This document shows, piece after piece, positions 8,196-63,640 of a stretch of DNA of 64,000 nucleotides. The notes under the pieces are model-generated. The model had not been told where the DNA came from and ran no database searches. It was given only the letters and a program-made list of their open reading frames with translations. This stretch comes from Bacteroidota bacterium. Its GTDB lineage: Bacteria > Bacteroidota > Bacteroidia > Chitinophagales > LD1. Position numbers and translations under genes: made by a program. Each line of letters begins with the position of its first letter. Position 1 is the first letter of the stretch. The DNA is taken from contig CANJVG010000003.1 of the NCBI GenBank assembly GCA_947478005.1, positions 6,696 to 70,695 on the forward strand, in the 5' to 3' direction.

Positions 8196-8554
8196 TTCCG
8201 AGATTTGCCGACAGTTCTTTGTAACCATGATTTGGATTTCTGAAAGCCATTGTCGCTGTTCTGATAAGCCCTGTCGGCTTTCCGAAATGCGCTGTCGCAC
8301 TTCCGATGGGGCCGTACACCGGTGTACGGGCTTGTCAGAATGGTGTACGCCACTTATCAGAGTCGTGTACGGGGGCATCGGAAAGGTGTACGCGGGCATC
8401 GGAAAGGTGTACGCGGGCATCAGAACGGTGTACGCGGGCAGAAGATTGATGTACGCGACTCATCAGAACGGTGTACAGGGGTATGGGAACGATGCAGAGG
8501 CTTATCGGAAATGCGAATTTGTTTGTCAGAACGATGTACGGGGGCAGAAGAAGA
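8196..8554. repeat. Array A: 21-nt-period degenerate tandem array with two inverted arms
   Basis: TTCYGA at 8196, 8238, 8259, 8280, 8301; RTGTAC at 8322, 8343, 8365, 8386, 8407, 8428, 8449, 8471, 8534; palindromic centre CCGTACACC|GGTGTACGG at 8312-8329. Confidence 0.9.
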
Positions 8555-8613
8555 GCGAATGAGAGTAGAAAAACAATTTTTAAAACTTTTTATAAAACAA
8601 AACCAACAAAACA

Positions 8614-9555
8614 ATGGCACGTGATTATTCAAGTACCGATGAGTACATGGTAGAACGCAGCGAAACGCTGCAAGGATTATTTAGTGACGCAGGAAACCTT
8701 CCTGACTTTACTGCTTTTGACCCTAATCTGGATGCCGCTTTTGCAGCCCAATGGCAAACGGCTATAGATGCGGCTGTGGCAACAGTGAGTGGCGAAACGG
8801 TAGATGACCAGGTGGTTCAGCTAACACAGATAGTGGATGGTGCTATGAAGAACTGCAGGAAGAAATATATTGAAGTGAAATATTTTTTCAATCTGGCGTT
8901 TCCGGGCAATGTGGGTATTATGAAAGAAATGGGGTTGGATGATTATGTAACGGCACGCAACCGGCAAATGCGCATGGTTTTCTTTACCGAAAACCTGCAC
9001 GCTGCTGCTGAAAAAAATAAAGTTGCGTTGATAGCCGCAGGTTATTCGCAGCTTCGGATTGATGAAATAGAAACTTTCAGAGCGGCTTTACAAACCGCGA
9101 ACAAAAACCAAAACAAATTTTTGAAAGGAAGGCCAGTGTTGACGCAGGAGCGGGAGAAAATTTTCAATACCTGCTTTGGCTTTACGAATAGAGTTTGTGA
9201 TGCCGCGCTTTCGGTCTATTATGATGATGATGTGAAGGGTGGTTTGTTTGTGTTTGAACCTTCGGGCGGCAACAACAGTGAGTTTTTTGATGGTTTGATA
9301 GGAATGGGTGTAGAAAAACACGTGGATGATTTTACTTACAATGTAAACATCAAATTCATATTGACCAACACAGGAACTAACCCTCTTGAATTTCAACTCA
9401 AGGAAGCAGGCGTATTTGTGGGAAACATAGTAATGGTAGCTCCGGGTGCAACGGTTGAAAAAATGGCTACTGATTTTTTCACTTCGGGCGATAGTATATG
9501 GGTGCGCAACCCCGGCCCTGGCGATGGAAGCTATGAAATAGAAGAAACTACTTGA
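8614..9555 (+). CDS. Hypothetical cytoplasmic protein (helical N-terminal ~215 aa plus beta-rich C-terminal ~95 aa)
   Basis: 313-aa ORF with strong A-rich start context and its own terminator; no signal peptide or recognisable catalytic motif. Confidence 0.85.
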   Translation: MARDYSSTDEYMVERSETLQGLFSDAGNLPDFTAFDPNLDAAFAAQWQTAIDAAVATVSGETVDDQVVQLTQIVDGAMKNCRKKYIEVKYFFNLAFPGNVGIMKEMGLDDYVTARNRQMRMVFFTENLHAAAEKNKVALIAAGYSQLRIDEIETFRAALQTANKNQNKFLKGRPVLTQEREKIFNTCFGFTNRVCDAALSVYYDDDVKGGLFVFEPSGGNNSEFFDGLIGMGVEKHVDDFTYNVNIKFILTNTGTNPLEFQLKEAGVFVGNIVMVAPGATVEKMATDFFTSGDSIWVRNPGPGDGSYEIEETT

Positions 9556-9575
9556 AGGACACGGTAGTGGTTGAA

Positions 9576-9617
9576 ATAAAAACGGGGTAGCAGATGAACT
9601 GCTATCCCGTTTTTTAT
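9576..9617. terminator. Bidirectional intrinsic terminator
   Basis: AAAAACGGGGTAGCAG-ATGAA-CTGCTATCCCGTTTTT between convergent genes. Confidence 0.85.
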
Positions 9618-9626
9618 AGTAGATAC

Positions 9627-10097
9627 TTATTTCTTCTCCGCAGAATGCTGCACTACTTTTTCGTTTTGTGCTTTCAATCGTCTGCAAAGCGTTTTTATAA
9701 TTCCTTTCGCCACCTCTATTCGGCTTTCCATTAATTCATAAAAAGGTTCCTGGTCCATTTTCAGCAGCAAACATTCACTCACCGTAGTAGCACTTGCCGA
9801 GCGGGTTTCGGTATCGAGCAAAGCATACTCGCCAAAACACTCTCCTTCCTTCATTACCACAAAAGTGTGTTCGCCTTTGTGAATGCGCACCTGCCCTTTG
9901 AAGATGATATACATACACTGAGCTTCATCGCCTGCTTCAAAAATATTGGTATTGGCTTCAAAATCTTCTTCTTCCAAAAGCTCCGCCACTTCCGCCAAAA
10001 CTGTTTCAGGTGTTTCGTGAAAGATGGAGATAGACTTGAGCAAGAGAACTTTCTCTATAAGCAGCAATCGCTGTTCGTGATGAGTTGTGGTTGACAT
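9627..10097 (-). CDS. Cyclic nucleotide-binding domain protein
   Basis: IFEAGDEA..MYII.KG.V.I and GECFGEYALLD...RSASA cNMP-binding motifs. Confidence 0.92.
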   Translation of the reverse strand: MSTTTHHEQRLLLIEKVLLLKSISIFHETPETVLAEVAELLEEEDFEANTNIFEAGDEAQCMYIIFKGQVRIHKGEHTFVVMKEGECFGEYALLDTETRSASATTVSECLLLKMDQEPFYELMESRIEVAKGIIKTLCRRLKAQNEKVVQHSAEKK

Positions 10098-10100
10098 GTT

Positions 10101-12863
10101 TTAATTCATTTCTGCCAGCAATTTCCCGGCTGTTTCGTAAAGCAATATATCCTTATCGTTTTTGGCATTCTCTAACCATCTGCGCTTTTCGCTTCCTTTG
10201 TAAGAACCAAGCGAATACAGGGCAGCCGCCTTGGTCCAGCGATGGTAGTAGTGCTTTTGGCTGTTCAAAATATCGCTGATGATATTTTCATAGTTCAACT
10301 GTTCTTTGAACACCAATTGAAGACTGTTGCACTTCTCTTCAATGCTTCCCGAATCGAACAGTTTATTGAAAGGCAAAGACAAGTCTTTCGGTACTTCTAT
10401 TTCAATGACTTCTAACGCGTTGGCAATGCTTTCCTTCTTATTCATGCTGAAAGCATTTCGTGCCTTCATCATTTTCTCCCGATTATACACAAACGAAAAA
10501 AGCATCAGCAACTGGTCGCGAATTTCCAACAATTCCAGATGTAGTGCCTCCACCAATAATTTAGCCGAAGGGGTTTTCTCCATCTCGCGAATGGAGAAAA
10601 TTATCAAGGTAGCCGCAGCCAGGTGACGGTGCATTAAATCTATATGCTCCTTGAGGTGGTGCGGCTGACTTCTAAACTCACAGGCGTGAAGCGCGTGGAA
10701 AATATCGGTACGCTGCGCAGGCAGTTTCCATACCAATTCATCGAGAATCTTAGCGGCATTGGTGGTGCCTATTCTCCCACAGAGCAAAATCAGTTTCGAT
10801 TGTTGCTGACGAGAAAGAATATCGCTTGTCAGCGCCAGCTTGATTTCCTTCAAAGCCACATCACCCGCCCGATGCATGGCATCTATAACTGGCTTCTCAT
10901 GCTTGCGATGCAATAGAAAATTCATCAACGGCACCATCAGTTTTTCGTTCTTCACATTCCCTGCTGCATGAATGGCTGTGCGCACCACATGATGGTTGTG
11001 GTCTTCGAGTAAATGAATCAAGGGTTTGTAAAAAGAATGAACACCGAGTTCGCCAATAATTTCAGCTGCTATTTTTCTTTCCTCCCAATGCTCAGAGTCT
11101 ATCAGGTGCAACAACTTCTGCCCCGCCACTACTACCGCGCTGATTCCCCCGCTGGTCATTAAGCCAATAATGGCTGCCTTCATAATACGGTGGTCCTTAT
11201 CTTCCAGAAATTCATCAAAGTTTTCCAACTCATCGGGCAGCAACATGCATTTTGCTTTGATGGCTTCGGGTAACAAACGCGTGTTATGCTTATCGGCAAT
11301 AATAGCCTCTATCTGTGGCAGGGCCTCCGCAATTTTTTTTCTTTCCGCCAGTTGAATGGCCTCCATGCGCACTTCCACCTTTTCATGCTCGAAAGCTTTC
11401 AAAACCAGTGGCTCCATTTCTTCTGTGTATTGTTTCTCAATCAGATTGAGCACATAAATGGCCTCACCCGTTCCTCCGGAAGAAATCTTTTGCAACAAAA
11501 CCTCCCTTGTCTTTTCATCTTCCAAATCAATTTCCTGCCCAACAGAGTATCGCTTGTTCAACGCATGAATCAGCGTTTTTACATACTCCCGGTCCACTAA
11601 AAAAATCATCACCACCCAAACAATGAGTAGCGTAACCACCATATAACTTAGCTGAAATAAATCAACCTTTCCCGAAAGCTTGAGTAAAGTGAATAGCATG
11701 AATCCACTAAAGATAAGAGCGAAGGGGTCCATCACTCCTTTTACAATCGTGTGTCCCTTCAAGCGAAGGTTAGCAGATAGCGGCTGCATGAGTGACAGGA
11801 AAACAGGGTCCTGTAAACTGGTCTTCAAAACCTCTGTAATAATGGCCATCAATCCGAAAACATAAAGCACCAAGTGATGGTCGGGATGAAACAGCGACAA
11901 AACGATAATGCTGAAAAGGAAAACGAAGAGAATAACTGGGCTGATTAGGAGAGAACCCTTAATCCCGAGAATGTTACTAAGTCGGCCTGTTAGTATAAGG
12001 CGAATAAAAATCGCAAAGATTCTACCTCCGGCATAGAACATTGATATGAATGCTGCGAGCTCTCCATCGCTGTGCATTTCATGTTTTATCTCGGCATAAA
12101 ACGAGAAACTGATAATCGTTACACAGGTAATAACGATAAACGACAAAAGCGCCACGAGAGCAATCATTCTGTTGCCGAAAAATCCCTTCATCAACTCGCG
12201 CCAGTTCTCGGTAACAAAATCATGACTTGCGGCATGTGCATGTTCGTGCGCCACATGCACATCCATTTTGCCCGCCCTCTTTAATCGGAAATAAAAAATG
12301 AGTGAACAGAGAATCGAAATTCCCGCAATCACCAGCATGTTTTGGCTGCTGAACACTTTCACCAACAGCGGTACAGCCGAATAACCAAACAACTTCGCAG
12401 GAATATCTCCTGCACCAATCATTCCGAACAGGCGCTTGCTTTGGCGTATATCGAACTGCAAAGCCGCCAATCCCCAGAACTCTAGATTAGTAAGCAGATA
12501 AATAACGTAGTACCAACTAAGAAGAACAAAGAGATAGGAAGAACTGTTCTCCTCCGAAAACAGCGCGCGCAATAAAAAAATGCTGCCGGCTACAAAAACG
12601 ATAATCAGCGGCACGAGCTTTTTCATCGGCAGTGCATGCTCCACTTTACTGTAAACAAACCCCACCACTAATAAGAGAGTACCGGCAAACAAATAAACCT
12701 TGGGCAGCGCAAGAGCCTCAAAATGCTCAATGAAAAGCGCCAGCACTACGGCATTGAAAATGGCAACCCCTACTCCCTGAAAAAACTGTAGCCAGAAAAG
12801 ATTGGTAACCAGCCAGGCTTCATCTGTTCGAATGTTGAGTAATCGGAGAATACGGTTTTTCAT
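10101..12863 (-). CDS. NTT/TLC-like (ATP/ADP exchange-type) membrane transporter fused to HEAT repeats
   Basis: ~12 hydrophobic segments in the first ~425 aa with FW.LA...FDIRQSKRLFGMIG motif, then HEAT-like repeats (VEVRMEAI, EERKIAAEIIGELG, HHVVRTAIHAAG). Confidence 0.8.
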   Translation of the reverse strand: MKNRILRLLNIRTDEAWLVTNLFWLQFFQGVGVAIFNAVVLALFIEHFEALALPKVYLFAGTLLLVVGFVYSKVEHALPMKKLVPLIIVFVAGSIFLLRALFSEENSSSYLFVLLSWYYVIYLLTNLEFWGLAALQFDIRQSKRLFGMIGAGDIPAKLFGYSAVPLLVKVFSSQNMLVIAGISILCSLIFYFRLKRAGKMDVHVAHEHAHAASHDFVTENWRELMKGFFGNRMIALVALLSFIVITCVTIISFSFYAEIKHEMHSDGELAAFISMFYAGGRIFAIFIRLILTGRLSNILGIKGSLLISPVILFVFLFSIIVLSLFHPDHHLVLYVFGLMAIITEVLKTSLQDPVFLSLMQPLSANLRLKGHTIVKGVMDPFALIFSGFMLFTLLKLSGKVDLFQLSYMVVTLLIVWVVMIFLVDREYVKTLIHALNKRYSVGQEIDLEDEKTREVLLQKISSGGTGEAIYVLNLIEKQYTEEMEPLVLKAFEHEKVEVRMEAIQLAERKKIAEALPQIEAIIADKHNTRLLPEAIKAKCMLLPDELENFDEFLEDKDHRIMKAAIIGLMTSGGISAVVVAGQKLLHLIDSEHWEERKIAAEIIGELGVHSFYKPLIHLLEDHNHHVVRTAIHAAGNVKNEKLMVPLMNFLLHRKHEKPVIDAMHRAGDVALKEIKLALTSDILSRQQQSKLILLCGRIGTTNAAKILDELVWKLPAQRTDIFHALHACEFRSQPHHLKEHIDLMHRHLAAATLIIFSIREMEKTPSAKLLVEALHLELLEIRDQLLMLFSFVYNREKMMKARNAFSMNKKESIANALEVIEIEVPKDLSLPFNKLFDSGSIEEKCNSLQLVFKEQLNYENIISDILNSQKHYYHRWTKAAALYSLGSYKGSEKRRWLENAKNDKDILLYETAGKLLAEMN

Positions 12864-12917
12864 CGGCTGCCAGTGAGGTGGCTAATTTATAATTTTGGAG
12901 TGGTTGTTCGACATCTC

Positions 12918-13427
12918 TCAAATTTTCCTGGCCTCGAGCTTCCTTTTATAAAACTCCTTATCGGCTACATAAACTGTCTTGGTGAAGGTGGCATACACCT
13001 TACCATCTGCATCTTCGTACTTCAAAGGCAATTCAAAAATATATTCTCCCGTTTCCGCAGTTTTTTGCTTTACCAGCTCAATTAATTCATCGGTAATAAG
13101 GAAACGACAATTCACTTTATTCAAAATAGGCCGGACAAACTTAACGCTCGCTCCTTTATCCCACACCACATAGCCTTTGCCCAGCACCTCCATAAACAAC
13201 AACATAAAATAGGGGTCAACAGAAGAATAAATACTACCTCCGTAAACCGTTCCTACTCGGTTGCGCGTTCGAATATTTAATTTCAAGCTGACATGTAGCT
13301 CTTTAAAGTCCCCTGCAATGAATTCCACCTTGCATTCCGTGCACCAGATGCAGGGCCAAAAATTGAATACCCATCGCATATACTTCGACTTTTTCGATTC
13401 TGACCTTAGGGTTTCATACTGCTTCAT
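12918..13427 (-). CDS. Hotdog-fold thioesterase-like protein (DUF4442/YiiD-like)
   Basis: TRNRVGTVYGGSIYSSVDPYFM and YVVWDKGASVKFVRP motifs. Confidence 0.85.
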   Translation of the reverse strand: MKQYETLRSESKKSKYMRWVFNFWPCIWCTECKVEFIAGDFKELHVSLKLNIRTRNRVGTVYGGSIYSSVDPYFMLLFMEVLGKGYVVWDKGASVKFVRPILNKVNCRFLITDELIELVKQKTAETGEYIFELPLKYEDADGKVYATFTKTVYVADKEFYKRKLEARKI

Positions 13428-13478
13428 TCGATGGATATTTTGATTTTCTATTTTCGGCCGCGCTAAAAAACAAAGTCT

Positions 13479-14585: not shown

Positions 14586-14600
14586 TACCCACGATAAATC

Positions 14601-15794: not shown

Positions 15795-15812
15795 GAGACA
15801 ATCTATCTTACA

Positions 15813-35700: not shown

Positions 35701-37388
35701 AACAGAATCGCGCGGCCATCAAGGGCAAAAGAGGCGAACTGATGAAAACCTTTGCAAAAGAAAAACGCAAAACAGCGAAAGATGAATTGGCTGCTTTAAA
35801 AGCAACGCGCATCAAGCTGAAAGAAGATTTAAAAACAGCAAAGAAGGGAAGGGAAATCGTAAAAATAAAGAAAGAACTTACTGCCGTTAAAAACAACACC
35901 ATTCTTAAGAAAACTGATTTAGACAATAAGCAACCTCCGCCAAATTCCCTTATTTCTATAGTGCTTCGCCCTTTGCTCTCGTTGAAAAAAGTGACGATTG
36001 AATACAAAGAAAACAAATCAACCACCTTGCCAGGCTTCACGGGTTACTCGCGCTTGTTAGGGGTCGACTACAAAACAAAATCTCCCGATTATGGTTTCGC
36101 CTTCGGCAATCAACCAGGCGACCGTCTGTTCAACAAAAAAGCAGATGATTTCAGTCGCGATAGTTGGTTAGATAAAGCGGCTGCCAGTGGATGGATTACA
36201 AAAGACACCTTGCTCAATCAGAAGTTCACACAAATGCGCTCGCAGCGAATAGACGCTACCGCTACATTAGAACCTTGGCCCGATTTAAAAATCGACTTGA
36301 CCCTATTTAGCGACCACTCCGTAAATCATTCCGAATACGCCAAGTATATCAATGATGCCAGCGGCAATCCGGTCTTCTCCCATCTCAACCCAACCGAAAC
36401 GGGCTCTTACAGCATTTCCTATTTACCGGCCAAGACCATGTTCGCCAAAATTGAAAAAGACGGTAACTCAGAAATCTATACACAATTTGAAAAGAATCGC
36501 GAAATAATTTCGAAACGATTGGGAACCGGCTCCTATATCAATCCAAGCGACTCAAGTCATACTCCTAACAATTCATACACCGAAGGTTATGGTCCCAAAT
36601 CGCAGGATGTCCTCATTCCCGCTTTCCTCGCGGCTTACAATGGTAAAGATGCAAGCAAAGTGGGCTTGAATCCGTTCAAAGCATTCCCTATGCCCAACTG
36701 GAGAATCTCCTACAATGGTTTAAGCAAGTTCAAATGGGCGCAGAATATCTTCACCAATTTCACCATCACCCACGGCTACAACTCTACACTTACTATCAAT
36801 AGCTTTTCAACCAACTTAGATTACACCCAAAGCGTACGCAACTCGGGCTCCAACCATACCGACACGCTCAACGGCAACTACTTCCCTCTTTACAACATGC
36901 CAAGCATTGTTCTCAACGAGCAACTCTCGCCATTGTTAGGGGTTGACATGACGTTCAAAAACAATGTAACCTGCAAGGTTGACTACAAACAAAGCCGCAC
37001 TCAAACCATGAACTTTGCCGATTATCAATTGGTCGAAATGCAATCAAAACAATTGACTGTAGGCGCTGGCTATAAAATAAAAGGACTTAAGCTGCCGATA
37101 AAAATCAAAGGCAAAAAAATCCGCCTCGACAATGATTTGAATTTCAAATTCGATTTCAGCTACCGCGACAATGTAACCATCAATCACCGAATCGACCAGG
37201 GCGTTCCGCAAATCACCTCCGGCTCGCGCACCATCACTATTCAACCATCCATAGATTACGTGGTGAGCAAGCGCCTAAACATCCGTCTCTTCTTCGACCA
37301 AACGCGTACTATCCCTAAAATCTCCTCGGGTTTCCCGACTACCAATACCCGTGGGGGAATTACCCTGCGTTTCTCGCTGGCTGATTAA
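29718..37388 (+). CDS. sprA: Type IX secretion system translocon SprA
   Basis: 2556 aa; FGGSKIEIKPQG, IEAGNVSLPL, NVEYIEFWMMDPF, NLGNISEDILRD, VWFDELR; follows ruvA as is common in Bacteroidota. Confidence 0.96.
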   Translation: MKVRQKIFSSVIAVSCVGILYMSNAEKNISRFRYLLPEIPAPLIEPDSPSLKYPIKDREGDFVTDKSKDPFYLKDPPVIKQDVEYDPKSGMYVVTEKVGGQNIKPPMYMTYDDYLKYTEKQEREAYIKDRQQAINLVEDKSIVPPIQVKKQFFDKLFGGSKIEIKPQGNVDMTLGGNTQTTANPNIPIRNRKTGGFDFDMNININVIGKIGDKLQLGVKYNTQSGFDFDNQVKLGYTGDEDDIIKVIEAGNVSLPLQTRLISGSQTLFGLKTQLQFGRLTWTTVISQQKSKKETMLIENGAQKQNFEIRSDQYEENKHFFLAQYFRNTYDQALSALPNIKSVVNITRIEVWATNRNGTTQNVRDVVGFNDLGEFAPYSTSIQPIGFDTKPDQNSNNLYGRLVGSPTTRFVNNVVADLQGNLQLQQGQDFEKTYARKLNDNEYIVNKQLGYISLNSQLNPNEVLAVAFQYEYNGAVFQVGEFGSQVPPDSNSTSKVLYLKLLKGTTVRPALPIWNLMMKNIYSLGAYNVSNEDFRLDVYYNDPGSGPKRYMPKGCLQGKPLISVLNLDNLNMNNDPQPDGLFDFVPGTTIITQNGRLIFPVVEPFGNNLRTAFTSCGSPPTLINQYVYDQLYDSTKFIAQQFPEYNRFVIKGQYKGANNREISLGAGNVPRGSVVVTAGGQKLVEGSDFTVDYNLGRVTVINQGILNSGQQIKVDYENNNLFATQVRSMYGTRLDYRISSKFNIGATVMHLSERPFTQKVNVGDDPISNTIMGADIKYETNAPWLTKALDKLPIYATKEMSTISTYAEMAYLKPGHSKAINGADKQGQVYVDDFEGTSSGYDLKTPSTSWKLASTPRNSTDASGRVMFPEASLINDERYGYNRAKIAWYRIDNSFFNSNNSPGVVYNNPDTKTNIKSHYVRLIPTQEVFPNRPNQTLDQNIYTFDLSFFPRDRGPYNYEWNNNPTVGISQGINNDGSLKSPQTRWAGVMRSIDNNDLEAQNVEYIEFWMMDPFLYNVNPAGGKLFFNLGNISEDILRDSRMSYENGIYADTSLLDRTSWGRVPKQPALVDAFDVDQNLRAQQDVGFDGMGDAEERDRKSIFLNNVQASVNASVFTKLQNDPSSDNYQYFKDENIYGNEPSILKRYEGFCGIEGNSPVQTNSVSSTAQTNLPDKEDLNKDNTLNENEEYFQYEVDLTRNTMDVGQNPYIISKVDGQTDANGVQAHWYQFRIPIKEYASRVGQIPDFKSIQFMRMFMTGWQDTNVVLRFATLELRRNQWRTYNLNINDPCDGLGTDLPGSSLNVASVGIEEHSAKTPVNYVLPPDIERTQALGSQTNQFVQQNEQSLALKVCDLKDCSRRAVFKNITLDVRRYKRLKMYIHANNIDGQIGVKDSDVTAFIRVGSDFKDNYYEYEVPLKITAAGKYDNNSTTDRQIVWPSENSIDLVLQDFIALKEKRNLIPGWNRTNVYTEKVDGRLRSIVGNPDIGSIKTIMLGIHNPTKGDPNNPLGGDGDDGREKCVEVWFDELRVSGFEESGGAAALATVNVKLADLGNISLGGSMHTKGFGQVEQKIDQRYKDNLYKYDFATNIEAGKLLPEKAGIRIPFYANYSQQFSTPEFDPYQFDIPTKDYMKALREVVGKDSARHYLRQIQTINTTRGYNFSNVRVVPQTKAKKPHIYDPGNFNFTYAYREQLLSDPYVEKNSKKNWSGIIGWSFAPQSKDFAPFKKLIRTKSKWADIIKDFSFNPMPSTMSFTTDLNRDFTEIKLRSLGEVDFAIPPTYSKNFRWNRSYVFKYNPFKSLSIDYSATDNARIDEPYGHIDTKEKKQEVWSNIGNGGRNTNYNQQLAVNYTIPINKLPIFDFITATVGYAATYNWTALPWQKDSASGKLVQNSLGNIINNTQNDRGKVDLNFKKLYDKVPFLKAYNAPNPNAGDKKENDKKREAIKKARAKIKEEIVKLKEKKVTLTAELDKAKDELKNDTVKQNKQKLDIAKAKEELKQNRAAIKGKRGELMKTFAKEKRKTAKDELAALKATRIKLKEDLKTAKKGREIVKIKKELTAVKNNTILKKTDLDNKQPPPNSLISIVLRPLLSLKKVTIEYKENKSTTLPGFTGYSRLLGVDYKTKSPDYGFAFGNQPGDRLFNKKADDFSRDSWLDKAAASGWITKDTLLNQKFTQMRSQRIDATATLEPWPDLKIDLTLFSDHSVNHSEYAKYINDASGNPVFSHLNPTETGSYSISYLPAKTMFAKIEKDGNSEIYTQFEKNREIISKRLGTGSYINPSDSSHTPNNSYTEGYGPKSQDVLIPAFLAAYNGKDASKVGLNPFKAFPMPNWRISYNGLSKFKWAQNIFTNFTITHGYNSTLTINSFSTNLDYTQSVRNSGSNHTDTLNGNYFPLYNMPSIVLNEQLSPLLGVDMTFKNNVTCKVDYKQSRTQTMNFADYQLVEMQSKQLTVGAGYKIKGLKLPIKIKGKKIRLDNDLNFKFDFSYRDNVTINHRIDQGVPQITSGSRTITIQPSIDYVVSKRLNIRLFFDQTRTIPKISSGFPTTNTRGGITLRFSLAD

Positions 37389-37414: not shown

Positions 37415-37718
37415 TTCGAGCGTTTAATGCCTCTTTCGAACCGCTAAATGCCGATTTCGGAGTGCTATTTCTTTGCTTTGGGGAGAGATTAAGCGGCTTT
37501 GAAGCGGTACGAAGCTATCTTTTTGCCCTGTAAAGAAAGAACTTAGCCCCCCAAAACAAAAACCCAGCACCCCGAAGCTAAAACTTAGTCGCCCAAAGAC
37601 GCAATCTAGCACTACAAAGACGCAAATTAGTCAAGTAAAGACGCATTGCAGCACTACGAAGACGCTTTGCAGGGGTGCGAAGCCACGTTGCAGGGGGTAA
37701 AAATGCCTTTTTAGCACT
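37415..37718. repeat. Array B: 21-nt-period degenerate tandem array with two inverted arms
   Basis: Right arm RAAR at 37532, 37553, 37574, 37595, 37616, 37637, 37658, 37679, 37700; left arm TTYG at 37435, 37456, 37477, 37498; left TTCGGAGTGCTA is the reverse complement of a right-type unit (cf. CAGCACCCCGAA, TAGCACTACAAA). Confidence 0.85.
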
Positions 37719-37854: not shown

Positions 37855-40827
37855 ATGTTTCCTTGTTTCGCGCAGATGCTTTTACGAGTTACAAATTTCA
37901 AATCACTAATTGGTGCGCCCCGCATTTGGGTTTGTCTCGTGTCTTGTGTCTTGTGTCTTGTGTCAAGCTCCCAAAATCCCGATTTCGTGAACTGGAAAAC
38001 CGACAAGGCTTGCATCGCCTGGGTTGATTCGGTTTACAAGCAACTTTCGGTAGAAGAAAAAATCGGGCAGTTCTTCATGCTGCCGGCCTACACCGAGGGA
38101 AAATCCTACAACATGGATTCCGTATTGCTCTGGATGAAACAAGGAAAAGCCGGAGGAGTAATTTTTTTTAAAGGAAAACCCGAAGCAGAAGCCGAATGGA
38201 CCAATAAAATTCAGGACTCCACCAAGGTCAAAAGTTTTATTGCCATTGATGGCGAATGGGGATTGGCCATGCGCATTGATTCAACGATTTCGTTTCCGCA
38301 TCAAATTGCACTCGGAGCGGTGGCCGACAATAAATTGATTTATGAAATGGGCCGCGAGATTGGTCGCGAGTGCAAGCGCATTGGAATCAACATCAACTTT
38401 GCTCCCGATGTGGATGTCAACAACAATCCGAACAACCCCGTTATCAATGACCGAAGTTTTGGCGAAGACAAATACAAAGTAGCGCTCAAGGGCATTGAAT
38501 ATTCCAATGGTATGCAGGATGAAGGTGTGCTCGCTTGCGCCAAACATTTTCCGGGACATGGTGATGTAAATACTGATTCACATTTCGATTTGCCGCTGAT
38601 AACAAAAAGCGCAGCAGCTTTTGATTCGCTGGAATTTTATCCTTTCAAAATTCTTTTCAAAAATAATGTGGGCAGTGCTATGGTTGCTCACCTCAATGTG
38701 CCCGCTTTAGATTCCACCAACACACCCGCTTCGCTTTCCTATCGTATTGCCACAAACTATTTGCACGACACACTTGGATTCAATGGCTTAGTTTTTTCCG
38801 ATGCATTGAACATGAAAGGCGTTGCCAAATACTACAAGCCGGGCACCGTTGATTCGATGGCCTTCATGGCGGGCTGCGACATTCTGGTGTTCAGCGAAGA
38901 TGCTTCGAAAGGAATTGAAAAAATAAAAGCCTCTGTTGACAGCGAATGTATTTCGCTGTATGAACTGGAGTTGCGTGTAAAAAAAGTGCTGGCTTACAAA
39001 TACAAACTTGGTTTGAATAAACCGCAGCACGTTAACCTCGAAAACCTGCGCGATGATTTGAATAACGCTAAAGCAAAAATGCTTCGCCAGCAATTATTCG
39101 AACGGGCCATTACTATAGCGGCTAATCAGAACAACCTTTTGCCATTTAAGGATTGGAACTATCGAAAAGTGGCTTCGCTTTCTATTGGCAACAACGGCAC
39201 TTCGCAGTTTCAACAGCACATCAATAATTTTGAAGAACTAGATTTTTTCAATCAGCCATTGGAGCACAACGAAAGCACCTTTACTTCTTTGCTCGATACG
39301 CTTGCTACCTACGATTTAGTGATTGTTGACTTGCATGGTATGATTCGCGCAGCGGGCAAGAATTATAATGTTACGGAGGAAACCAGAAAGTTTGTAGAAG
39401 CCCTTACCGGGCGAACAAAAGTAGTGTTGTGTGTATTCGGAAACCCTTATTCCCTGAAATACTTCGAATACATTCCGTGGATTGTGGAAGCTTATGAAGA
39501 TAATGATGCCACCAACCTTGCAGCAGCGAATGCATTGTTCGGTTCGGAAAGGGTTTCGGGGAAGTTGCCCGTTACTGCATCCGCAACTTTTCCAGCAGGT
39601 AGCGGCTTTGTAACAGACAGTATTTATCGTTTAAAAATTACATCGCCTGAAGAAGTTGGAATTCAAACTGCTGCTCTGAAAAAAGTGGACGACATTATTC
39701 AACATGGAATTGAGAACAAGGCCTTTCCGGGCTGTCAGTTGTTAGTCGCTAAGGACGGCAAGGTGATTTGGAATAAAAGCTACGGCACAAAATTTTATGA
39801 GTTGCCAGATGACAAGGTGAAGCCTGCTGATTTGTATGACATTGCTTCCATTACAAAGGTTGCTGCGACAACCTTATCGGTGATGAAATTATGCGAGCAG
39901 AAGAAAATCAATCTTGATAAAACAGTTGGTGATTATCTCGATTTACCCAAAGATGGCACCATCAAGAATCTGAAACTAAAAGATGTGCTTACGCATCAGG
40001 CCGGTCTGAAAGCATTCTTTATGTTCTACAAAAACACAATTGACAGCAACTTCGAAAAGTATTATCGCAGAAAAGCAGATTCTACTTTCTCAGTGCGTGT
40101 AGCCGATTCACTTTTTATCCGCAATGACTATCCTGATACGATGTGGAGCATTATCAATCACTCTGCAGTAGATGAGCACCCCAAATATGTTTACAGCGAT
40201 AATGACTTCTACATTCTTCAAAAAGTTGTAGAGAAAGTATCGGGCAAAAAACTGGATGCTTTTGTAAATGATAATTTCTATCGGCCAATGGGCTTAACCC
40301 GAATTGGTTTTAAGCCGTTGGATAAGTATCCGTACGAAAGAATAATGCCTACCGAAAATGATTCTGCTTTTCGCAAGCAAGTGGTTCGTGGTTATGTACA
40401 CGACCCGGGTTCAGCCATGTATGGAGGTGTTGCAGGACATGCCGGAGTTTTCAGCAATGCTTTTGATTTAGCTGCTCTCTTTCAAATGTTGCTGAACAAC
40501 GGAACTTACAACAGAAAAAGATTTTTGGATTCATGTACGATTCACAACTTCACTTCCCGCCAATCAAAAATTTCGCGCAGAGGTTATGGCTTTGACAAGC
40601 CCGAACCGGATGTGAGCAAGCCTTCACCTTGCTATGATGGTGTTCCTCTTTCTGCTTTCGGGCATACGGGCTTTACAGGCACCTGTGTTTGGAGCGACCC
40701 CGAAAACAACCTCACCTATATTTTCCTGAGCAATCGGGTCTACCCAAATGCCGAAAACAACCAGTTGGTGAAGATGAATATCCGCACCGATCTGCAGGAA
40801 GTGATTTATAAAGCGATTGGGAAGTAA
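37855..40827 (+). CDS. GH3 beta-N-acetylglucosaminidase fused to a beta-lactamase-like serine hydrolase; exact start uncertain
   Basis: IDGEWGL, KHFPGHG and FSDALNM (NagZ-type GH3); ASITK (SxxK), YVYSD, GHTGFTGT in the C-terminal domain. Confidence 0.93.
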   Translation: MFPCFAQMLLRVTNFKSLIGAPRIWVCLVSCVLCLVSSSQNPDFVNWKTDKACIAWVDSVYKQLSVEEKIGQFFMLPAYTEGKSYNMDSVLLWMKQGKAGGVIFFKGKPEAEAEWTNKIQDSTKVKSFIAIDGEWGLAMRIDSTISFPHQIALGAVADNKLIYEMGREIGRECKRIGININFAPDVDVNNNPNNPVINDRSFGEDKYKVALKGIEYSNGMQDEGVLACAKHFPGHGDVNTDSHFDLPLITKSAAAFDSLEFYPFKILFKNNVGSAMVAHLNVPALDSTNTPASLSYRIATNYLHDTLGFNGLVFSDALNMKGVAKYYKPGTVDSMAFMAGCDILVFSEDASKGIEKIKASVDSECISLYELELRVKKVLAYKYKLGLNKPQHVNLENLRDDLNNAKAKMLRQQLFERAITIAANQNNLLPFKDWNYRKVASLSIGNNGTSQFQQHINNFEELDFFNQPLEHNESTFTSLLDTLATYDLVIVDLHGMIRAAGKNYNVTEETRKFVEALTGRTKVVLCVFGNPYSLKYFEYIPWIVEAYEDNDATNLAAANALFGSERVSGKLPVTASATFPAGSGFVTDSIYRLKITSPEEVGIQTAALKKVDDIIQHGIENKAFPGCQLLVAKDGKVIWNKSYGTKFYELPDDKVKPADLYDIASITKVAATTLSVMKLCEQKKINLDKTVGDYLDLPKDGTIKNLKLKDVLTHQAGLKAFFMFYKNTIDSNFEKYYRRKADSTFSVRVADSLFIRNDYPDTMWSIINHSAVDEHPKYVYSDNDFYILQKVVEKVSGKKLDAFVNDNFYRPMGLTRIGFKPLDKYPYERIMPTENDSAFRKQVVRGYVHDPGSAMYGGVAGHAGVFSNAFDLAALFQMLLNNGTYNRKRFLDSCTIHNFTSRQSKISRRGYGFDKPEPDVSKPSPCYDGVPLSAFGHTGFTGTCVWSDPENNLTYIFLSNRVYPNAENNQLVKMNIRTDLQEVIYKAIGK

Positions 40828-47002: not shown

Positions 47003-47005
47003 AAA

Positions 47006-52283: not shown

Positions 52284-52776
52284 GTTTAGTGTTCCCCATC
52301 CCGAATTTAATGAATCCGGACTCGAATTGAACGGAGCTGGAGGCGAGATAAACCACACTTTACCTACATTGAATTACCGAAGACCCACATTGAATCAGTA
52401 AAGACTTAAATTGAATTAGTAAAGACATAGATTGAACAAGTAAATACTTACATTGTATTAGCAAATACTGACGTTTTATAAGTAGTTACCTAAGTTTTGT
52501 TAGGTAAACATGACATAAGACAAGCTTAACCTTGAAAAAAACAAGTATTTGCCTTGATTGTATCATGTTTTACCTTCATTGTTCAAGTTCAAATGACCTC
52601 TGACCTCATTCAATGAGGTTCTGGGGCTATTCAATGGACATTTTGGACTATACAAACAGGTTAAACAGCCATTCTTACAGCCTCCGAACCTGTTCAATTG
52701 AATTCTGGCTTTGTTCAAACAGAGTCTGTTGCCATTCAAGCCAAATCCCGAGTTCTTCAACCCAATGAACCCATAA
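52284..52776. repeat. Array C: 21-nt-period degenerate tandem array with two inverted arms
   Basis: Left arm ATTGAA at 52326, 52368, 52389, 52410, 52431 (variants at 52305, 52452); right arm TTCAA at 52588, 52609, 52630, 52693, 52714, 52735, 52756 (variants at 52651, 52672). Confidence 0.88.
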
Positions 52777-57459: not shown

Positions 57460-57462
57460 AAA

Positions 57463-60400: not shown

Positions 60401-60525
60401 CATCGAGCCGCGTATCGTTGGGTATTGTGGTAATAGGCGGCCTCATGTTCTCGCTGATACTTACCCTGTATGTTATCCCTTCTATGTATTCCTATCTTTC
60501 AAGAACCAAGAAACATGCTGAATAG
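57463..60525 (+). CDS. RND efflux permease (AcrB/MdtB-like)
   Basis: KRPVLA, GLVVDDGIVVTENI, GLVTKNGILIVEFA, RLRPILMT. Confidence 0.97.
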   Translation: MSLPGLSLKRPVLAIVMSIVIVLFGAIGYKFLGVREYPSIDPPVITVRTNYTGANADVIESQITEPLEKAINGVEGIRTISSSSNQGSSIITVEFNLGANLEAAANDVRDKVSQGIRLLPQDIDAPPVVTKADANSDAIISMTVQSNTRNQLQVSDYASNVLLEKLQTIPGVSTVQIWGEKKYAMRLWVDPLKLSAYSLSFTDIQNALTKENVELPAGKVYGNNTELTVKTFGRLTTESDFENLIIKSGDNQIIRLRDVANVVLGPENEETVLKESGVPMVALAITPQPGSNYVEIADEFYKRYEQIKKEVPEDIKLDIALDQTVFVKRSITEVGETLAIAFALVVIIIFLFFRDWLIAIRPLIDIPVSLIGAFFIMYMAGFTINVLTLLAIVLATGLVVDDGIVVTENIFKKLEAGLDKHRAAKEGSEEIFFAVIATSITLAVVFLPIIFLQGFVGSLFREFGIVVAGAVLISAFVSLTLTPVLNVLLTRKENKRTWFYEKTEPFYVALDNGYRESLQTFMKRRWLAFPILIACAGFIFLIGKSLPSELAPMEDRGAFRLSVSTPEGTSYDYMNRYMDKLVHFAMDSVPEAKIVLSVTSPNFAGSGAVNTGFVRMRLSEPDERIRSQNDVAQYVAKNSGRFNEGKVFPIQDQTISTGGGARFGLPVQFVIQNLNFEKIREVLPKFLEEANKNPTFQGVDVNLKFNKPELQIEINRLKANDLGVSVLDISTTLQLALSGRRLGYFIMNGKQYQVIGQVDRENRDEPLDLKTFFVRNNKGALIQLDNLVTITEQSNPPQLYHFDRYKSATVSAGLAPGKTVGDGVLAMEEISKKVLDESFNTALTGASRDFKESSSNIGFAFVLALILIFLILAAQFESFVDPLIIMFTVPLAIAGALLSLWMFNQTLNIFSQIGIIMLIGLVTKNGILIVEFANKKREAGEEKLEAVIDAAALRLRPILMTSLATALGALPIALALGAGASSRVSLGIVVIGGLMFSLILTLYVIPSMYSYLSRTKKHAE

Positions 60526-61819
60526 AATCGGAATCGCGTTTATGTTTCTTTTATGCCTGGTGGTGCTGGCGCCATCCAAAGCAGCGGCACAGGAAACCCT
60601 CACGATTGAGCAGGCCATTGAATTGGCGATGAAGAATAACTACGATATTCAAATAGCGAAGAACGATGCGGAGATTGCCGCGCGAAACAATTCGGTGGGC
60701 AATGCCGGCATGTTGCCGAAGATAAACGGAACGTTGAGCGACAACTACACGCTGAATAATCTGAACCAAAAATTTACGAACGGTACCGAGATAGACAAAA
60801 ACAATGTGACCGGCAATAATCTGACTGCCGGTGTGGCTCTTAACTGGACTTTGTTTGATGGGCTGAAAATGTTTGCGACCAAGGGCAAGCTGAAGCGACT
60901 GGCGGAGATTGGCGAGTTGCAGTTTAAGGATGAAATGCAGACGGTGGTGGCTAACGTGTTGAATGCATACTATGACGTGGTGCGTGCGCAGCAACAGTTG
61001 AAGGCCATTGATGAAGCCATCCGCATTTCGAACGAACGGGTGAAGCTCGCGGACATGAAATTTCAGGTGGGCAGTTCGAGCAAGGTTGATTTGCTGCAGG
61101 CCAAAGTGGATTTGAATGAACAGAAAAGCAATTTGCTTTCGCAACGGAAAACGGTGGAACAGCGCAAGGCTGATTTAAACACGTTGCTGTCGCGCAATGC
61201 CGAAACTGATTTTTCGGTAACCGATTCGATTCCTTTCAACGAACCAAAAATCTCTACGGAGTTAGACAAGAACTTCCAACTGCAGGCGGCTATGAAGAAT
61301 ATGGAGGTGGCGAAGTTTGCGAAGAGGGAAGCCTTCTCACAGTTTCTTCCAAACCTGAACGGCAATGTAGGTTACAGTTACAATCGCGCCAACAGCACGG
61401 CCGGTTTTTCGTTGTTCAATCAGTCGTATGGATTGAATGCCGGCTTTAGTTTAAACGTTCCGCTGTTCAACGGGCGGAACACCATTCGCCAAAATAAAAT
61501 TGCTTCTATTCAAATTCTTTCCTCGCAGTTCAATCTCGAGAAGGTGCGGTTTCAGATTAAGCTGAACAACTACAGAGCGATTAAAGAGTTGGCCAAAGCT
61601 AAAGAGCAGTTGACCTTGGAAACAGAAAATATTTCCCTGGCCGATGAGAATCAAAAAATTGCGTTGGAGCGTTTTCGATTGGCACAGTCCACGGCTATTG
61701 AACTTCGCGAAGCGCAAATCAGTTTTGTGAATGCCCAAACGCGGCTGGTGAACGCGCGCTATGATGCCAAAGCTGCAGAGACAGAACTGCTGCGCCTGCA
61801 GGGCGAGTTGGTGAAATAA
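60515..61819 (+). CDS. TolC family outer membrane efflux protein
   Basis: LTIEQAIELAMKNN, LNWTLFDG, VPLFNG motifs; third gene of the RND operon. Confidence 0.95.
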   Translation: MLNRIGIAFMFLLCLVVLAPSKAAAQETLTIEQAIELAMKNNYDIQIAKNDAEIAARNNSVGNAGMLPKINGTLSDNYTLNNLNQKFTNGTEIDKNNVTGNNLTAGVALNWTLFDGLKMFATKGKLKRLAEIGELQFKDEMQTVVANVLNAYYDVVRAQQQLKAIDEAIRISNERVKLADMKFQVGSSSKVDLLQAKVDLNEQKSNLLSQRKTVEQRKADLNTLLSRNAETDFSVTDSIPFNEPKISTELDKNFQLQAAMKNMEVAKFAKREAFSQFLPNLNGNVGYSYNRANSTAGFSLFNQSYGLNAGFSLNVPLFNGRNTIRQNKIASIQILSSQFNLEKVRFQIKLNNYRAIKELAKAKEQLTLETENISLADENQKIALERFRLAQSTAIELREAQISFVNAQTRLVNARYDAKAAETELLRLQGELVK

Positions 61820-61893
61820 AGTCTTACGGCATTCCAGCCGCCTCTCCATTCATGGTGCTGTCATTTTAATCCTAACTTTATCCAAATTCTAAA

Positions 61894-62298
61894 ATGAAAA
61901 AATCAGCCATCCTTCTTGCCTGTCTGTTGTTCTTTGCCAAAGCGCATAGCCAAACCGCTCTGTTCTTTTGCGCTTATGTAAACGAATCGGGCAATTGTTT
62001 TATGAACAACAACCAATTTATTGCTTCGCCCGACAGCACTGTCCAACGGATTTTTATGCAGGCGGAAGACCCCCGGACTTTTTCGGGCACCTCCAAGGTG
62101 ATTTTCAAAGTTTATACGGTGGGTAAAAACGGGGTGGAAACTTATGACAGCTCCTCCGAACAAAACGTGCAGAACGATTGGATTTTTGCCTGGACGCCCT
62201 ATAGCTTCAAAGCGCCCGGCACCTATAAGGTGAAAGTCTTCAACGACCGAAACCAATTGCTTTGCGAAAAAGGGCTGACGTTTTTTGCGGGGAAATAA
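61894..62298 (+). CDS. Exported hypothetical protein (single beta-sandwich-like domain)
   Basis: Signal peptide ending AHS-Q; PGTYKVKVFN motif. Confidence 0.75.
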   Translation: MKKSAILLACLLFFAKAHSQTALFFCAYVNESGNCFMNNNQFIASPDSTVQRIFMQAEDPRTFSGTSKVIFKVYTVGKNGVETYDSSSEQNVQNDWIFAWTPYSFKAPGTYKVKVFNDRNQLLCEKGLTFFAGK

Positions 62299-62300
62299 GT

Positions 62301-62464
62301 TGGGGTTCCCGCGAGGCGCGGTCGCGCTTTCCGTTCCGCTCTTTTTTTGCTGTATTTTGTCCTCCGCTGGCGGAGGTGGCTCGCTGCTCTGAGCGAGACG
62401 GAGGTGGATGTATTAGTCTTTCTCTCCCAGCAAAAAAAGGAGCTCCACTACAATCGCTAACCCG
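62301..62464. repeat. Structured GC-rich intergenic element with a nested REP-like unit
   Basis: Outer 12-bp stem CTTTTTTTGCTG (62341-62352)/CAGCAAAAAAAG (62428-62439) enclosing hairpins CCTCCGCTGGCGGAGG and CTCGC..GCGAG. Confidence 0.65.
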
Positions 62465-62531
62465 ACCTGTCCCGCTTGGGGTTTCCTTTAACTGCGTGCT
62501 GGCGGGAAAAAAAACAGCCAACAAGGAATAT

Positions 62532-63065
62532 TTATTCTACCAGAAATTTAGCCTTATATCCTTGTTTGTTCCATTCGTTACAAATAGCTTCTAAGTTTTC
62601 CTTTTGTTGGGATCCATCCGCTATAAATTTGTATCTGTAATGAGTATTATGAACGTATAAATCAAACCTGCACTCGAAAATATTTGTCAAGAAGACAATC
62701 ATTGATTCACCAGGGTAGAAAGATTGTTGAAAAATGTTGAGGTATTGAATCTCTTCTATTCGAAAGGTTTTATCGCTTTCATTCTTTAGATTAACGATAA
62801 TCCTGTCATCTACCAGTGAGAAAGTGCCTAATATATTGTGAACCTTTGTCTTCGTTTTATAAACAGAATATGCAAGCACTGAAACAAAAGCAATTGGAAG
62901 CACAATGGCCAGAACAGTAAACATCTCATCACGTATCCAATGCGGTATGAAATGCATAACTAAGAATACTAAGCTTGGTGGTATATATCCGATGAGCACT
63001 AGACCGTCCCCACCTTTTATATCAGGCGGCTCAATAATTTTCCCCTGAAATTCTCTCCAACTCAT
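62532..63065 (-). CDS. Hypothetical membrane protein (two TM helices plus soluble domain)
   Basis: 177-aa ORF with two hydrophobic segments; visibly AT-richer than its neighbours. Confidence 0.7.
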   Translation of the reverse strand: MSWREFQGKIIEPPDIKGGDGLVLIGYIPPSLVFLVMHFIPHWIRDEMFTVLAIVLPIAFVSVLAYSVYKTKTKVHNILGTFSLVDDRIIVNLKNESDKTFRIEEIQYLNIFQQSFYPGESMIVFLTNIFECRFDLYVHNTHYRYKFIADGSQQKENLEAICNEWNKQGYKAKFLVE

Positions 63066-63256
63066 GATGCATTATTCTCCCTCAAACCTAAAACTTTCCT
63101 TCAATCCCCCAACCTCCTCTTAATCTCCTCCACACTCATTCCTTTCAGTTTCTTTTCGAGATTAAACGTTGCCTTTTTTTCTCGGCAGGGTCTCTGCCTC
63201 AGGACCCTGCGTTCTGTAAGGTATATCTAACCTTCCCCCCGTATTTCCCTCGGCCT

Positions 63257-63450
63257 TGAGGATTTGGGCGTTAAAAAAATCATGGAAGAAACCGTTAAGA
63301 ACTGCACACTGTTTGAGCGCAACCAACACTTTCAATTTGCGACCAAACCTCATGCGCGAGTTTGTGCAGTTTAGGTTTCTGTAATGATTTTTAGCCCAAA
63401 GCCTCACAGCCTTGAACTTTTGGTTCTTTTGGTTCAAGCCAAAAGAACAA
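63257..63450. repeat. Large stem-loop intergenic element with terminal hairpin
   Basis: TGAGG.TTTGGGC..AAAAATCAT..AGAAACC pairs with GGTTTCT..ATGATTTTT.GCCCAAA.CCTCA; inner AACTGCACA/TGTGCAGTT; then GTTCTTTTGG-TTCAAG-CCAAAAGAAC. Confidence 0.7.
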
Positions 63451-63470
63451 CCATTTTAACAATCAACCCA

Positions 63471-63640
63471 AAACAAACCTCCCCAGCCCAAAACAAACCC
63501 GAACTCCCGCTAAACAAACCCGAATTGCACCCGAACAAACCAGAATTGCCATCAAACAAACCATAACCCCGCATAAAAAAACCCGAATTCCGGTAAAACA
63601 AACCAGAACTCGGGTTAAATAAACCTAAGCGGGGTGTTTC
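63471..63640. repeat. Array D: 21-nt-period degenerate tandem array (single orientation)
   Basis: AAACC at 63495, 63516, 63537, 63558, 63579, 63600, 63621 (and 63475); consensus about AACAAACCMGAAYTNCNNNNN. Confidence 0.9.

Follow-up and report, generated by a model that had tools for sequence, protein, structure and literature searches.

Four intergenic tandem arrays (A-D) in a 64,000-nt stretch of DNA from a Bacteroidota bacterium of the order Chitinophagales (contig CANJVG010000003.1, positions 6,696 to 70,695; the whole stretch is called the window below) belong to a class of non-coding tandem repeats with periods of 21 or 42 nt, about 200 of which are spread over the genome. This class of array is already published, as the 20-21-nt bacterial tandem repeats of 'constant size, variable sequence' described in PMC8161180, and the genome studied here is a dense new example of it. 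The original prediction, made from the letters of the window, had held that no named element fits such arrays. That claim has to be withdrawn in view of the class as described in PMC8161180 and of the relatives BrickBuilt and PgRS as described in PMC4596501. We consider it possible, with a probability of roughly 0.4, that selection acts on the period of the arrays and that these form helically phased platforms of DNA, probably coated by protein. Coordinates without a contig name are positions in the window, and names with the prefix C denote contigs of the genome under study (G000; 3.99 Mb in 230 contigs, 42.4% G+C) or of its congener G008.

Over half of the tandem repeats of the genome are locked to multiples of 21 nt

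The period signal was recorded over the whole genome by a scan of all lags from 4 to 69 in sliding 126-nt windows, in which a self-match of at least 55% was counted as a region. The regions so counted numbered 139 at lag 21, 198 at 42 and 125 at 63. At any other lag there were 23 regions or fewer, and the larger of these counts were at multiples of 9 and fell within collagen-like genes. Array-free intergenic DNA showed no lag signal and stayed flat at about 0.27 at every lag. When the period-21/42/63 regions were merged, 211 remained, with a median length of 332 bp and a sum of 72.7 kb, or 1.8% of the genome. In an independent whole-genome run of Tandem Repeats Finder (TRF), 242 of 423 non-redundant tandem repeats had a period that is a multiple of 21; there were 77 arrays at period 21, 100 at 42, 28 at 63 and 18 at 84, against 7 at 20 and 3 at 22. 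Over the arrays the mean self-match was 0.46 at lag 21 and rose to 0.57 at lag 42, which indicates that the commonest design is a 42-nt unit of two differentiated 21-nt halves. The range of array sizes is narrow, with the 10th and 90th percentiles at 11 and 22 units. Among low-copy intergenic repeats (<2.6 copies), 36 had period 21, 24 had period 42 and 14 had period 63, while each of the periods 17-20 and 22-25 was represented by 0-5 repeats.

The four arrays of the window showed the same register. TRF gave a period of 21 or 42 at all four sites, and the window has 27 TRF rows whose period exceeds 16, all of them at one of these two values. The lag-21 self-match was 0.51 in array A, 0.56 in B, 0.53 in C and 0.64 in D, and in arrays A-C the lags that are not multiples of 21 gave about 0.30-0.33. 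The 21-nt register that had been read from these arrays by eye is thus confirmed. The same is true of the remark that their cores differ and that neighbouring units drift, which is seen in A-D and was measured genome-wide as a decay of similarity within arrays, which was 0.61 at lag 42 and had dropped to 0.45 by lag 210. This decay fits local duplication combined with short-range exchange.

Two side observations from the period scans concern other repeats. The commonest short periods in the genome are 7 (19 arrays) and 14 (18 arrays). The main coding regions caught by the scan are collagen-like Gly-X-Y genes, e.g. at C1:67047-67304, C1:69363-69653 and C18:23567-24468, which cause the signals at lags 9, 18, 27 and 63.

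The arrays are non-coding and occur in every type of intergenic region

Our crude, home-made gene caller placed 67 short open reading frames (ORFs) mostly inside arrays. Sixty-six of these, with scores of 8-30, were removed because they are artefacts of periodic sequence, and one (score 93) was kept. After this removal 198 of the 211 regions were intergenic, and the other 13 lay within real repeat proteins. Conservation along the unit, determined for 115 arrays, showed no 3-nt periodicity, and 1-nt slips are visible in arrays A-D. Decayed coding heptad repeats were rejected as an explanation on account of the missing 3-nt periodicity and the low scores of the 66 array-internal ORFs, an outcome that had been expected when the arrays were first noticed. 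In the same 115 arrays the conserved columns formed contiguous blocks (autocorrelation 0.15 at shift 1), and no second conservation peak was found that would correspond to half-sites 10-11 bp apart within the unit. There was no A/T phasing at 10.5 bp in the 21-nt units. The strongest A/T sub-harmonic, seen in the 42-nt units, was 7 nt, yet identity at lags 7, 14 and 28 was barely above background.

The 198 intergenic arrays are located between tandem genes (95), divergent genes (48) or convergent genes (35), or at contig ends (20), at a density of about 5 per 100 kb in all contig size classes. The strict Bacteroidetes promoter pattern had 3 matches in the window where 3.1 were expected, and the -33 motif TTTG was not enriched (TTTG 304 versus CAAA 270). 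Since no spacers separate the units and conservation is confined to 4-6 nt of each, these are not CRISPR arrays, as the original prediction correctly stated. Its analogy with LytTR operator sites, i.e. 9-bp repeats at 21-bp spacing in 2-3 copies, did not hold up: the period fits, but the arrays have 11-22 units, and the genome contains only 4 LytTR matches for about 200 arrays.

Arrays accompany multi-copy orphan gene families

Arrays were found next to most members of several multi-copy gene families of G000 without a Pfam match, adjoining 7/8, 7/9, 7/10, 6/8, 5/6, 5/6, 4/4 and 4/6 of the members. One such family includes the 313-aa gene (8614-9555, + strand) directly downstream of array A, the right arm of which stops 60 nt before the ATG. 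This gene, itself without a Pfam or PHROG match, belongs in G000 to a paralogue family of 6 members, 4 of them with an array upstream, and homologues with 21/42 arrays upstream were found in two congeners, two of them in G014 and one in G008. Three further matches to the family were set aside, one at a contig end and two partial and of low complexity. In the sampled DNA the family was found in 3 of 3 array-positive genomes and in 0 of 2 array-negative ones. The AlphaFold2 model of the 313-aa protein (predicted local distance difference test score, pLDDT, 88.8) consists of two domains, an N-terminal one that is helical and a small C-terminal jelly-roll. Fold comparison linked the jelly-roll only weakly and in part to cupins, PirA and Ena subunits and gave nothing for the helical domain, and neither domain suggests a function; the ESM Atlas returned only hypothetical Bacteroidota clusters, Pfam nothing and the PHROGs nothing useful.

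For three further orphan families we collected 20 regions upstream of homologues in six other array-positive genomes (G002, G008, G014, G015, G021 and G028), of which one was too short and 19 were used. Clear 21/42 arrays were present in 16 of the 19, weak ones in 2, and none in 1. Among the 16 clear cases are all 4 homologues from G021 and G028, genomes of two other families of the order, with protein identities of 26-30%. In all these genomes the sequence of the upstream array was unrelated, having been fully replaced. Each of the three families turned up in 4 or 5 of the 6 array-positive genomes that were sampled, and in none of the 5 array-negative genomes. The arrays stay linked to the gene families through complete turnover of the array sequence, which argues for a function and names promoters that can be tested.

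A 134-aa family (C116:4477-4881 and paralogues) deserves mention in this context. It combines a weak Cro/C1-type helix-turn-helix (HTH) with a C-terminal leucine-zipper-like helix; of its 6 paralogues 5 stand beside arrays, and within the genus it was found only in array-bearing genomes. We regard it as no more than a candidate for an array-binding protein. About 25 orphan genes share an A/C-rich leader (TTTTTAAnC ... AAAACCAAT ... ATGGC), e.g. at 8555-8613, which in many array-linked ones separates the start codon from the end of the array. A loose form of this pattern had 113 matches in the genome, 17 of them with an array at most 200 nt upstream, and is enriched rather than diagnostic. No gene of G000 matched DUF6261 (PF19775), though this search is weak, as the control genomes gave no match either.

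The period is retained while the sequence is replaced

For the comparison with other genomes we used members of the same class, of which 60-400 kb each were sampled, and arrays not found in such a sample may still exist elsewhere in the genome. Arrays were detected in the congeners G008 (11 in 400 kb), G014 (3 in 120 kb), G015 (2 in 133 kb) and G002 (1 in 79 kb), and in G021 (4 in 200 kb) and G028 (2 in 60 kb) from other families of the order. None were detected in the congeners G012, G004, G009 and G013 (200, 120, 100 and 74 kb sampled), in 80 kb of G022, or in ten genomes of other families of the class (80 kb each).

One orthologous pair of arrays was found, at C9:37475-37786 in G008 and C25:23644-23888 in G000. 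The two arrays lie directly upstream of the same gene and abut its conserved -33/-7 promoter, which the two genomes have in common. Both keep the 21/42 register, and their unit sequence differs over the whole array. The pair is a case of concerted evolution in which the period was retained. The suggestion that one shared constraint fixes the geometry of the arrays and not their sequence is strongly supported by this pair and by the 242 of 423 repeats with multiples of 21. The gene following sprA varies in most relatives, and G008 has an unrelated 42-nt array after sprA. A 1.2-kb segment of G008 (C7:11055-12230), made up of a 42-nt array and a 170-aa gene with a signal-peptide-like start, is missing at the otherwise collinear site C17:12722-12731 of G000. 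Copies of the motif GNTTTTGCAARG flank this segment, and both copies are present in G000 too. As general synteny breakpoints between G008 and G000 the arrays were rejected, since 2 of 12 neighbour pairs spanning an array and 36 of 129 other pairs were collinear, which is no clear difference.

Within the population the arrays are stable. Arrays B and C showed 0 differences in contigs from independent metagenome runs of another study, array B in contigs of two such runs, and are therefore not hypervariable in this population. Variation in unit number was not seen in the contigs of runs X3 and X6; in one contig of run X8 a joint skips 67 nt in array B, at a depth of 5.3 that is too weak to be counted.

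Spacing of the arrays and predicted shape of their DNA

The arrays are more evenly spaced than random intergenic regions. On contigs with at least two arrays, the distances between arrays (n = 67, median 12.2 kb) had a coefficient of variation (CV) of 0.56. Random intergenic regions drawn in the same numbers per contig gave a CV of 0.83-0.88 (sd 0.07-0.08), the lowest value in 400 draws being 0.56-0.67 depending on the null.

Curvature was calculated with two dinucleotide wedge models. The predicted bend per unit was 13-17 degrees, and whole arrays were predicted to be curved, with a ratio of end-to-end distance to contour length of 0.78 against 0.91 for shuffled sequence in one model and 0.87 against 0.94 in the other. 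When the columns were permuted identically in every unit the curvature persisted (ratio 0.76), from which it would follow, under these models, that the curvature arises from the period alone, whatever the sequence.

Most arrays are unrelated in sequence

Consensus units of 163 arrays were compared with each other. The median best cyclic identity between them was 18/42, equal to that of shuffled units. At an identity of 30/42 or better, 91 of the 163 units were singletons and 72 clustered with at least one other; the largest family had 8 members, and arrays A-D lay outside the five largest. A single sequence family of the BrickBuilt type, embracing all arrays, was rejected on the number of singletons and the size of the largest family.

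The 8-member family is a composite element of the BrickBuilt kind, dispersed in the genome. In it a 42-nt tandem array stands with a conserved leader (about 90 nt) and a conserved tail (about 170 nt), and the copies of the element are at C11:50375-50833 and C4:45232-45746 and on C149, C157, C165, C5, C6 and C9 of G000. In 6 of the 8 copies a gene starts just past the leader and reads away from it. By eye, neither inverted ends nor target duplications could be established for the element. The 11-mer TTTTGCAAAGG, which is similar to the IS5-type end that PMC4596501 gives for ISNme1, has 12 copies in the genome (including C1:3437-3447 and, in the window, 35749-35759) against 1 for the reversed control. 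Only 1 of the 12 copies stands beside an array.

The arrays of the window, their arms and their symmetry

Array A lies between the left limit at 8196 and the 313-aa gene described above. Its left arm (8196-8320, - strand) has about 5-6 degenerate 21-nt units with TTCYGA, the reverse complement of the TCRGAA of the right arm, and its right arm (8321-8554, + strand) has about 11 units of 21 nt with the cores GTGTAC and TCRGAA. The TRF rows are 8237-8298 (period 21), 8321-8434 and 8365-8476, with period 21 and a score of 131 for 8321-8476. Array B, between sprA and a gene with GH3 and beta-lactamase domains, has a left arm of weak 21-nt units with a CTTTS core (37415-37516, - strand) and a right arm of 21/42-nt units with a RAAGAC core (37517-37718, + strand); four TRF rows, with periods 21 and 42, cover 37545-37696. 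A heptanucleotide repeat, TGTCTTG in 4.6 copies, is located at 37933-37964 between this array and the likely start of the GH3 gene. Array C has an ATTGAAT core in its left arm (52284-52469, + strand), with 5 clear units at 52365-52469 (TRF period 21, 5.0 copies, score 105), and the reverse complement ATTCAAT in its right arm (52542-52776, - strand; TRF 52542-52589), which is upstream of a metallophosphatase gene. Array D (63471-63640, + strand) is a single arm of about 8 units of 21 nt with the core AAACAAACC (TRF 63491-63625, period 21, 6.4 copies). It lies upstream of a 177-aa orphan ORF (62532-63065, - strand) that has no Pfam match and no paralogue in the genome. No Rfam family and no tRNA was found at the arrays; the sole Rfam match of the window is a Flavo-1 RNA motif (RF01705) at 62316-62466 on the - strand (48.7 bits, gathering score 42), just downstream of the 177-aa ORF.

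The opposed arms ascribed to A, B and C were found to be real in A and C and weaker in B. In array A the palindrome statistic over 105 nt was 0.50, against a maximum of 0.44 in 200 shuffles, and the inverted match over 84 nt was 0.56 (z 5.9) with a direct match of 0.40. In array B the palindrome statistic was 0.49, centred near 37516 (null maximum 0.44), with a weaker inverted match of 0.52 (z 4.0). Array C gave no significant result in the centre-anchored palindrome test; its 49-nt arms at 52367-52415 and 52588-52636 are 71% complementary, and its 84-nt inverted match was 0.57 (z 5.4). As a general design the two arms did not stand. With an inverted match of at least 0.55 and a direct match below 0.45 over 84 nt, 7 of the 198 arrays were two-armed, A and C among them, which makes the arrangement an occasional variant. 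An inverted match of at least 0.55 was recorded for 96 of the 198, and all but 7 of these also matched directly in the same segments, which points to palindromic units and not to two arms. Arm calling based on consensus units was discarded: it called only 3 of 183 arrays two-armed and missed A-C because their arms are too diverged. Dyad symmetry of the whole unit above the 99th percentile of shuffles was found in 39 of 127 42-nt consensus units and in 1 of 36 21-nt units. A long fold-back RNA, which had been put forward as one unifying feature, was not supported, since folding was only modestly better than in shuffled sequence (z -3.46, i.e. about -3.5, for A, and -1.5, -2.4 and -2.6 for B, C and D).

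A model of phased platforms and the alternatives to it

We propose the following for the origin and action of the arrays. The length of the unit is held at 21 bp, which is two turns of B-DNA, or at 42 bp, and every array has a sequence of its own; selection would act on the period and not on the sequence. Each unit would set its short core on the same face of the helix, and an array of 230-460 bp would form a helically phased, intrinsically curved platform beside core promoters. One or more lineage-specific DNA-binding proteins would most likely coat this platform cooperatively and so set the activity or topology of the neighbouring genes. Turnover would proceed by local duplication and unequal exchange within the array, i.e. 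by concerted evolution, and an occasional inverted duplication would give an array two arms, as in A, B and C. What we infer in this model, at the modest probability given at the outset, is selection on the period, protein binding and any effect on transcription. In its favour we count the period lock, the non-coding nature of the arrays, the period kept through the replacement of sequence, the linkage to and co-occurrence with orphan families, the even spacing, the narrow range of sizes, the stability in independent runs and the predicted curvature, which bear on selection for the period only indirectly.

Several of our results weigh against it. The arrays have no strand bias with respect to the downstream gene, and convergent intergenic regions hold 35 of 198 of them, both of which argue against a purely promoter-linked role. 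The system is not essential, as no array was found in 200 kb of one congener. In 5 of 5 congeners nothing corresponds to array C upstream of the orthologous metallophosphatase gene, and at least some arrays are therefore young and dispensable. In the wedge models real units bent no more than shuffled units (percentile 0.50-0.54), which gives no sign of selection for extra curvature. The core differs from array to array, and one sequence-specific protein that would bind them all is difficult to imagine. The co-occurrence of gene families and arrays is a lead and not a statistical result, the genomes being related and the samples only 60-400 kb. Dispersed copies with a common leader and tail are as expected of a mobile, possibly selfish, element.

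This last point leads to the view that the arrays are selfish or neutral minisatellites carried in elements like MITEs (miniature transposable elements with inverted repeats), of the BrickBuilt type, which we regard as somewhat unlikely. An ancestral element bearing a 21-nt repeat inside it would have spread through intergenic DNA, its period being inherited and of no function to the cell, and unequal exchange would keep the unit length by descent while each copy homogenised its own sequence. The 8-member family with its 42-nt unit, leader and tail would be an instance of this, as would the clustering of 72 of the 163 units; yet 91 of the 163 are singletons, and no terminal inverted repeats or target duplications were established. 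The patchy occurrence among congeners, the missing array C at 5 of 5 orthologous sites and the 1.2-kb segment of array and gene present in G008 and not at the collinear G000 site also suit such elements, as do the decay of similarity within arrays and the lack of strand bias relative to genes. Against this, the arrays stay with the same orphan families over family-level divergence although their sequence is fully replaced, their spacing is more even than random, and their length range is narrow. Deletion bias is usual in bacteria, and the arrays nevertheless persist at 1.8% of a streamlined 4-Mb genome. BrickBuilt and PgRS, with leader, tail and IS5-type ends in the account given in PMC4596501, provide a precedent. 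The occurrence of the same 20-21-nt size in unrelated phyla, as reported in PMC8161180, is inexplicable by descent.

A mutational process with a period of its own was also considered, in which replication, repair or recombination would duplicate DNA in 21-nt steps and sometimes switch strand, with no selection on the product. We think this unlikely. We know of no bacterial machinery with a 21-nt step, and the arrays were not found in congeners that presumably have the same core replication and repair genes. Such a process would account for the bias of low-copy repeats to 21, 42 and 63, though these low-copy rows may be remnants of old, diverged arrays. It would also account for the two-armed arrays with a near-perfect central palindrome (A), which look like products of a strand switch, for the resemblance, by eye, of the units of the orthologous G000 and G008 arrays to the adjacent -33 promoter region, and for the fact that most arrays have no relative elsewhere in the genome. 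The linkage to gene families and the even spacing are left unexplained. A function at the level of RNA, with the arrays transcribed as 5' leaders or non-coding RNAs that form hairpin strings, fold-backs, sponges or sources of small RNAs, is in our view improbable. The 39 dyad-symmetric 42-nt units of 127 would form strings of hairpins and array A folds back (z -3.46), but B, C and D reach no more than -1.5, -2.4 and -2.6, and only 1 of 36 21-nt units is dyad-symmetric. Two-way promoter activity of BrickBuilt, as reported in PMC4596501, and transcription of the 52-nt repeats of Bacillus coagulans, as reported in PMC8161180 and PMC8625621, are in keeping with a transcribed array. The lack of strand bias with respect to genes and of any Rfam match at the arrays is not, and a helical-repeat period is without obvious meaning for RNA.

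A bolder reading can be formulated, which we hold to be unlikely. The arrays and the orphan families that travel with them would be one undescribed accessory system of the Chitinophagales, possibly of wider Bacteroidota, in which a protein ruler of two helical turns would build or read the arrays. The resulting chromatin-like platforms would control a set of accessory genes and split the chromosome into domains of about 12-14 kb, and the package would be gained and lost as a whole between close relatives. Period-locked repeats of variable sequence are an acknowledged puzzle, and G000, with about 200 arrays in 1.8% of its DNA, is a dense case of it. Since array-bearing and array-free genomes occur in one genus, comparative genomics can look for genes that travel with the arrays, as several orphan families already do. 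The even spacing and the curvature predicted from the period alone make a physical hypothesis that is open to experiment, and if there is a binding protein, it would represent a novel type of component in bacterial chromatin or regulation.

Comparison with known repeat systems

Helically phased tandem sites with a common geometry and a sequence particular to each system are found in plasmid iterons and partition centromeres, and in this respect our arrays are like them. R6K and pSC101 have 22-bp iterons, sopC of F has 12 units of 43 bp that contain a dyad, and parC of R1 has two iteron arms that flank a promoter; the array stands beside the gene that it serves. A replicon has one or a few such arrays, and the Rep, ParB or ParR protein that reads them is encoded alongside. 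In G000 no Rep, ParB or ParR domains were found in the neighbours of the arrays, of which there are about 200, or about 5 per 100 kb, which speaks against iterons and centromeres proper; unlike iterons, many of the arrays adjoin ordinary housekeeping genes. The REP and BIME clusters of Proteobacteria are intergenic and often palindromic tandem units, sometimes alternating, for which roles in nucleoid structure and mRNA stability have been proposed. REP sequences are conserved genome-wide and have no period that is locked over unrelated sequences, whereas in our arrays the reverse is the case.

Closer in phylogeny are the repeats of Porphyromonas gingivalis, as they are presented in PMC4596501. 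BrickBuilt has 23-nt repeats with leader and tail, is always intergenic and shows promoter activity in both directions, and the same species has PgRS/MITE464 with 41-nt repeats. They belong to the same phylum, are found in every kind of intergenic region as repeats that span roughly two or four helical turns and, like our arrays, have imperfect units with conserved and variable positions, in runs of 1-23 units (PMC4596501). The leader and tail of BrickBuilt are matched here by the one 8-member family, which does not include arrays A-D. BrickBuilt is described as one sequence family of 19 copies with IS5-type inverted ends that makes up 0.44% of its genome (PMC4596501). In contrast, G000 has about 200 arrays, or 1.8% of the genome, mostly of unrelated sequence and with periods of 21 and 42 instead of 23 and 41. 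Besides BrickBuilt we found no 21-bp arrays of Bacteroidetes in the literature, though the supplements to the primary catalogue of the 20-21-nt class may list Bacteroidota.

The best match is that class itself. In the text of PMC8161180, Subirana and Messeguer portray 20-21-nt repeats that are non-coding and species-specific. A short stretch is conserved in every repeat, and the repeats are present in single species scattered over many groups. The two authors describe them as enigmatic, note that 21 nt equals two helical turns, and propose a protein that polymerises on the DNA, or small RNAs (PMC8161180). Our arrays share the features listed there: many arrays of one genome have a length of about 21 nt (TRF, 77 at 21 and 100 at 42); the sequence differs among them (91 of 163 singletons, median identity as in shuffled units); they are non-coding (198 of 211 intergenic, no 3-nt periodicity, 1-nt slips); and short cores are seen in A-D, and the arrays are species-specific, array C having no counterpart in 5 of 5 congeners. 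The examples given there are from Bacillus and other Firmicutes, with Cyanobacteria and Actinobacteria mentioned (PMC8161180), and ours are from Bacteroidota. New in this work are the co-occurrence, genome by genome, of the arrays with multi-copy orphan gene families, the arrays upstream of 16 of 19 homologues elsewhere, and an orthologous array in which the period was kept and the sequence replaced. Compared with the class as it is described in PMC8161180, the arrays of G000 are distinguished by the dominance of period 42, by palindromic symmetry in about one third of the 42-nt units, by the link to orphan families and by their even spacing.

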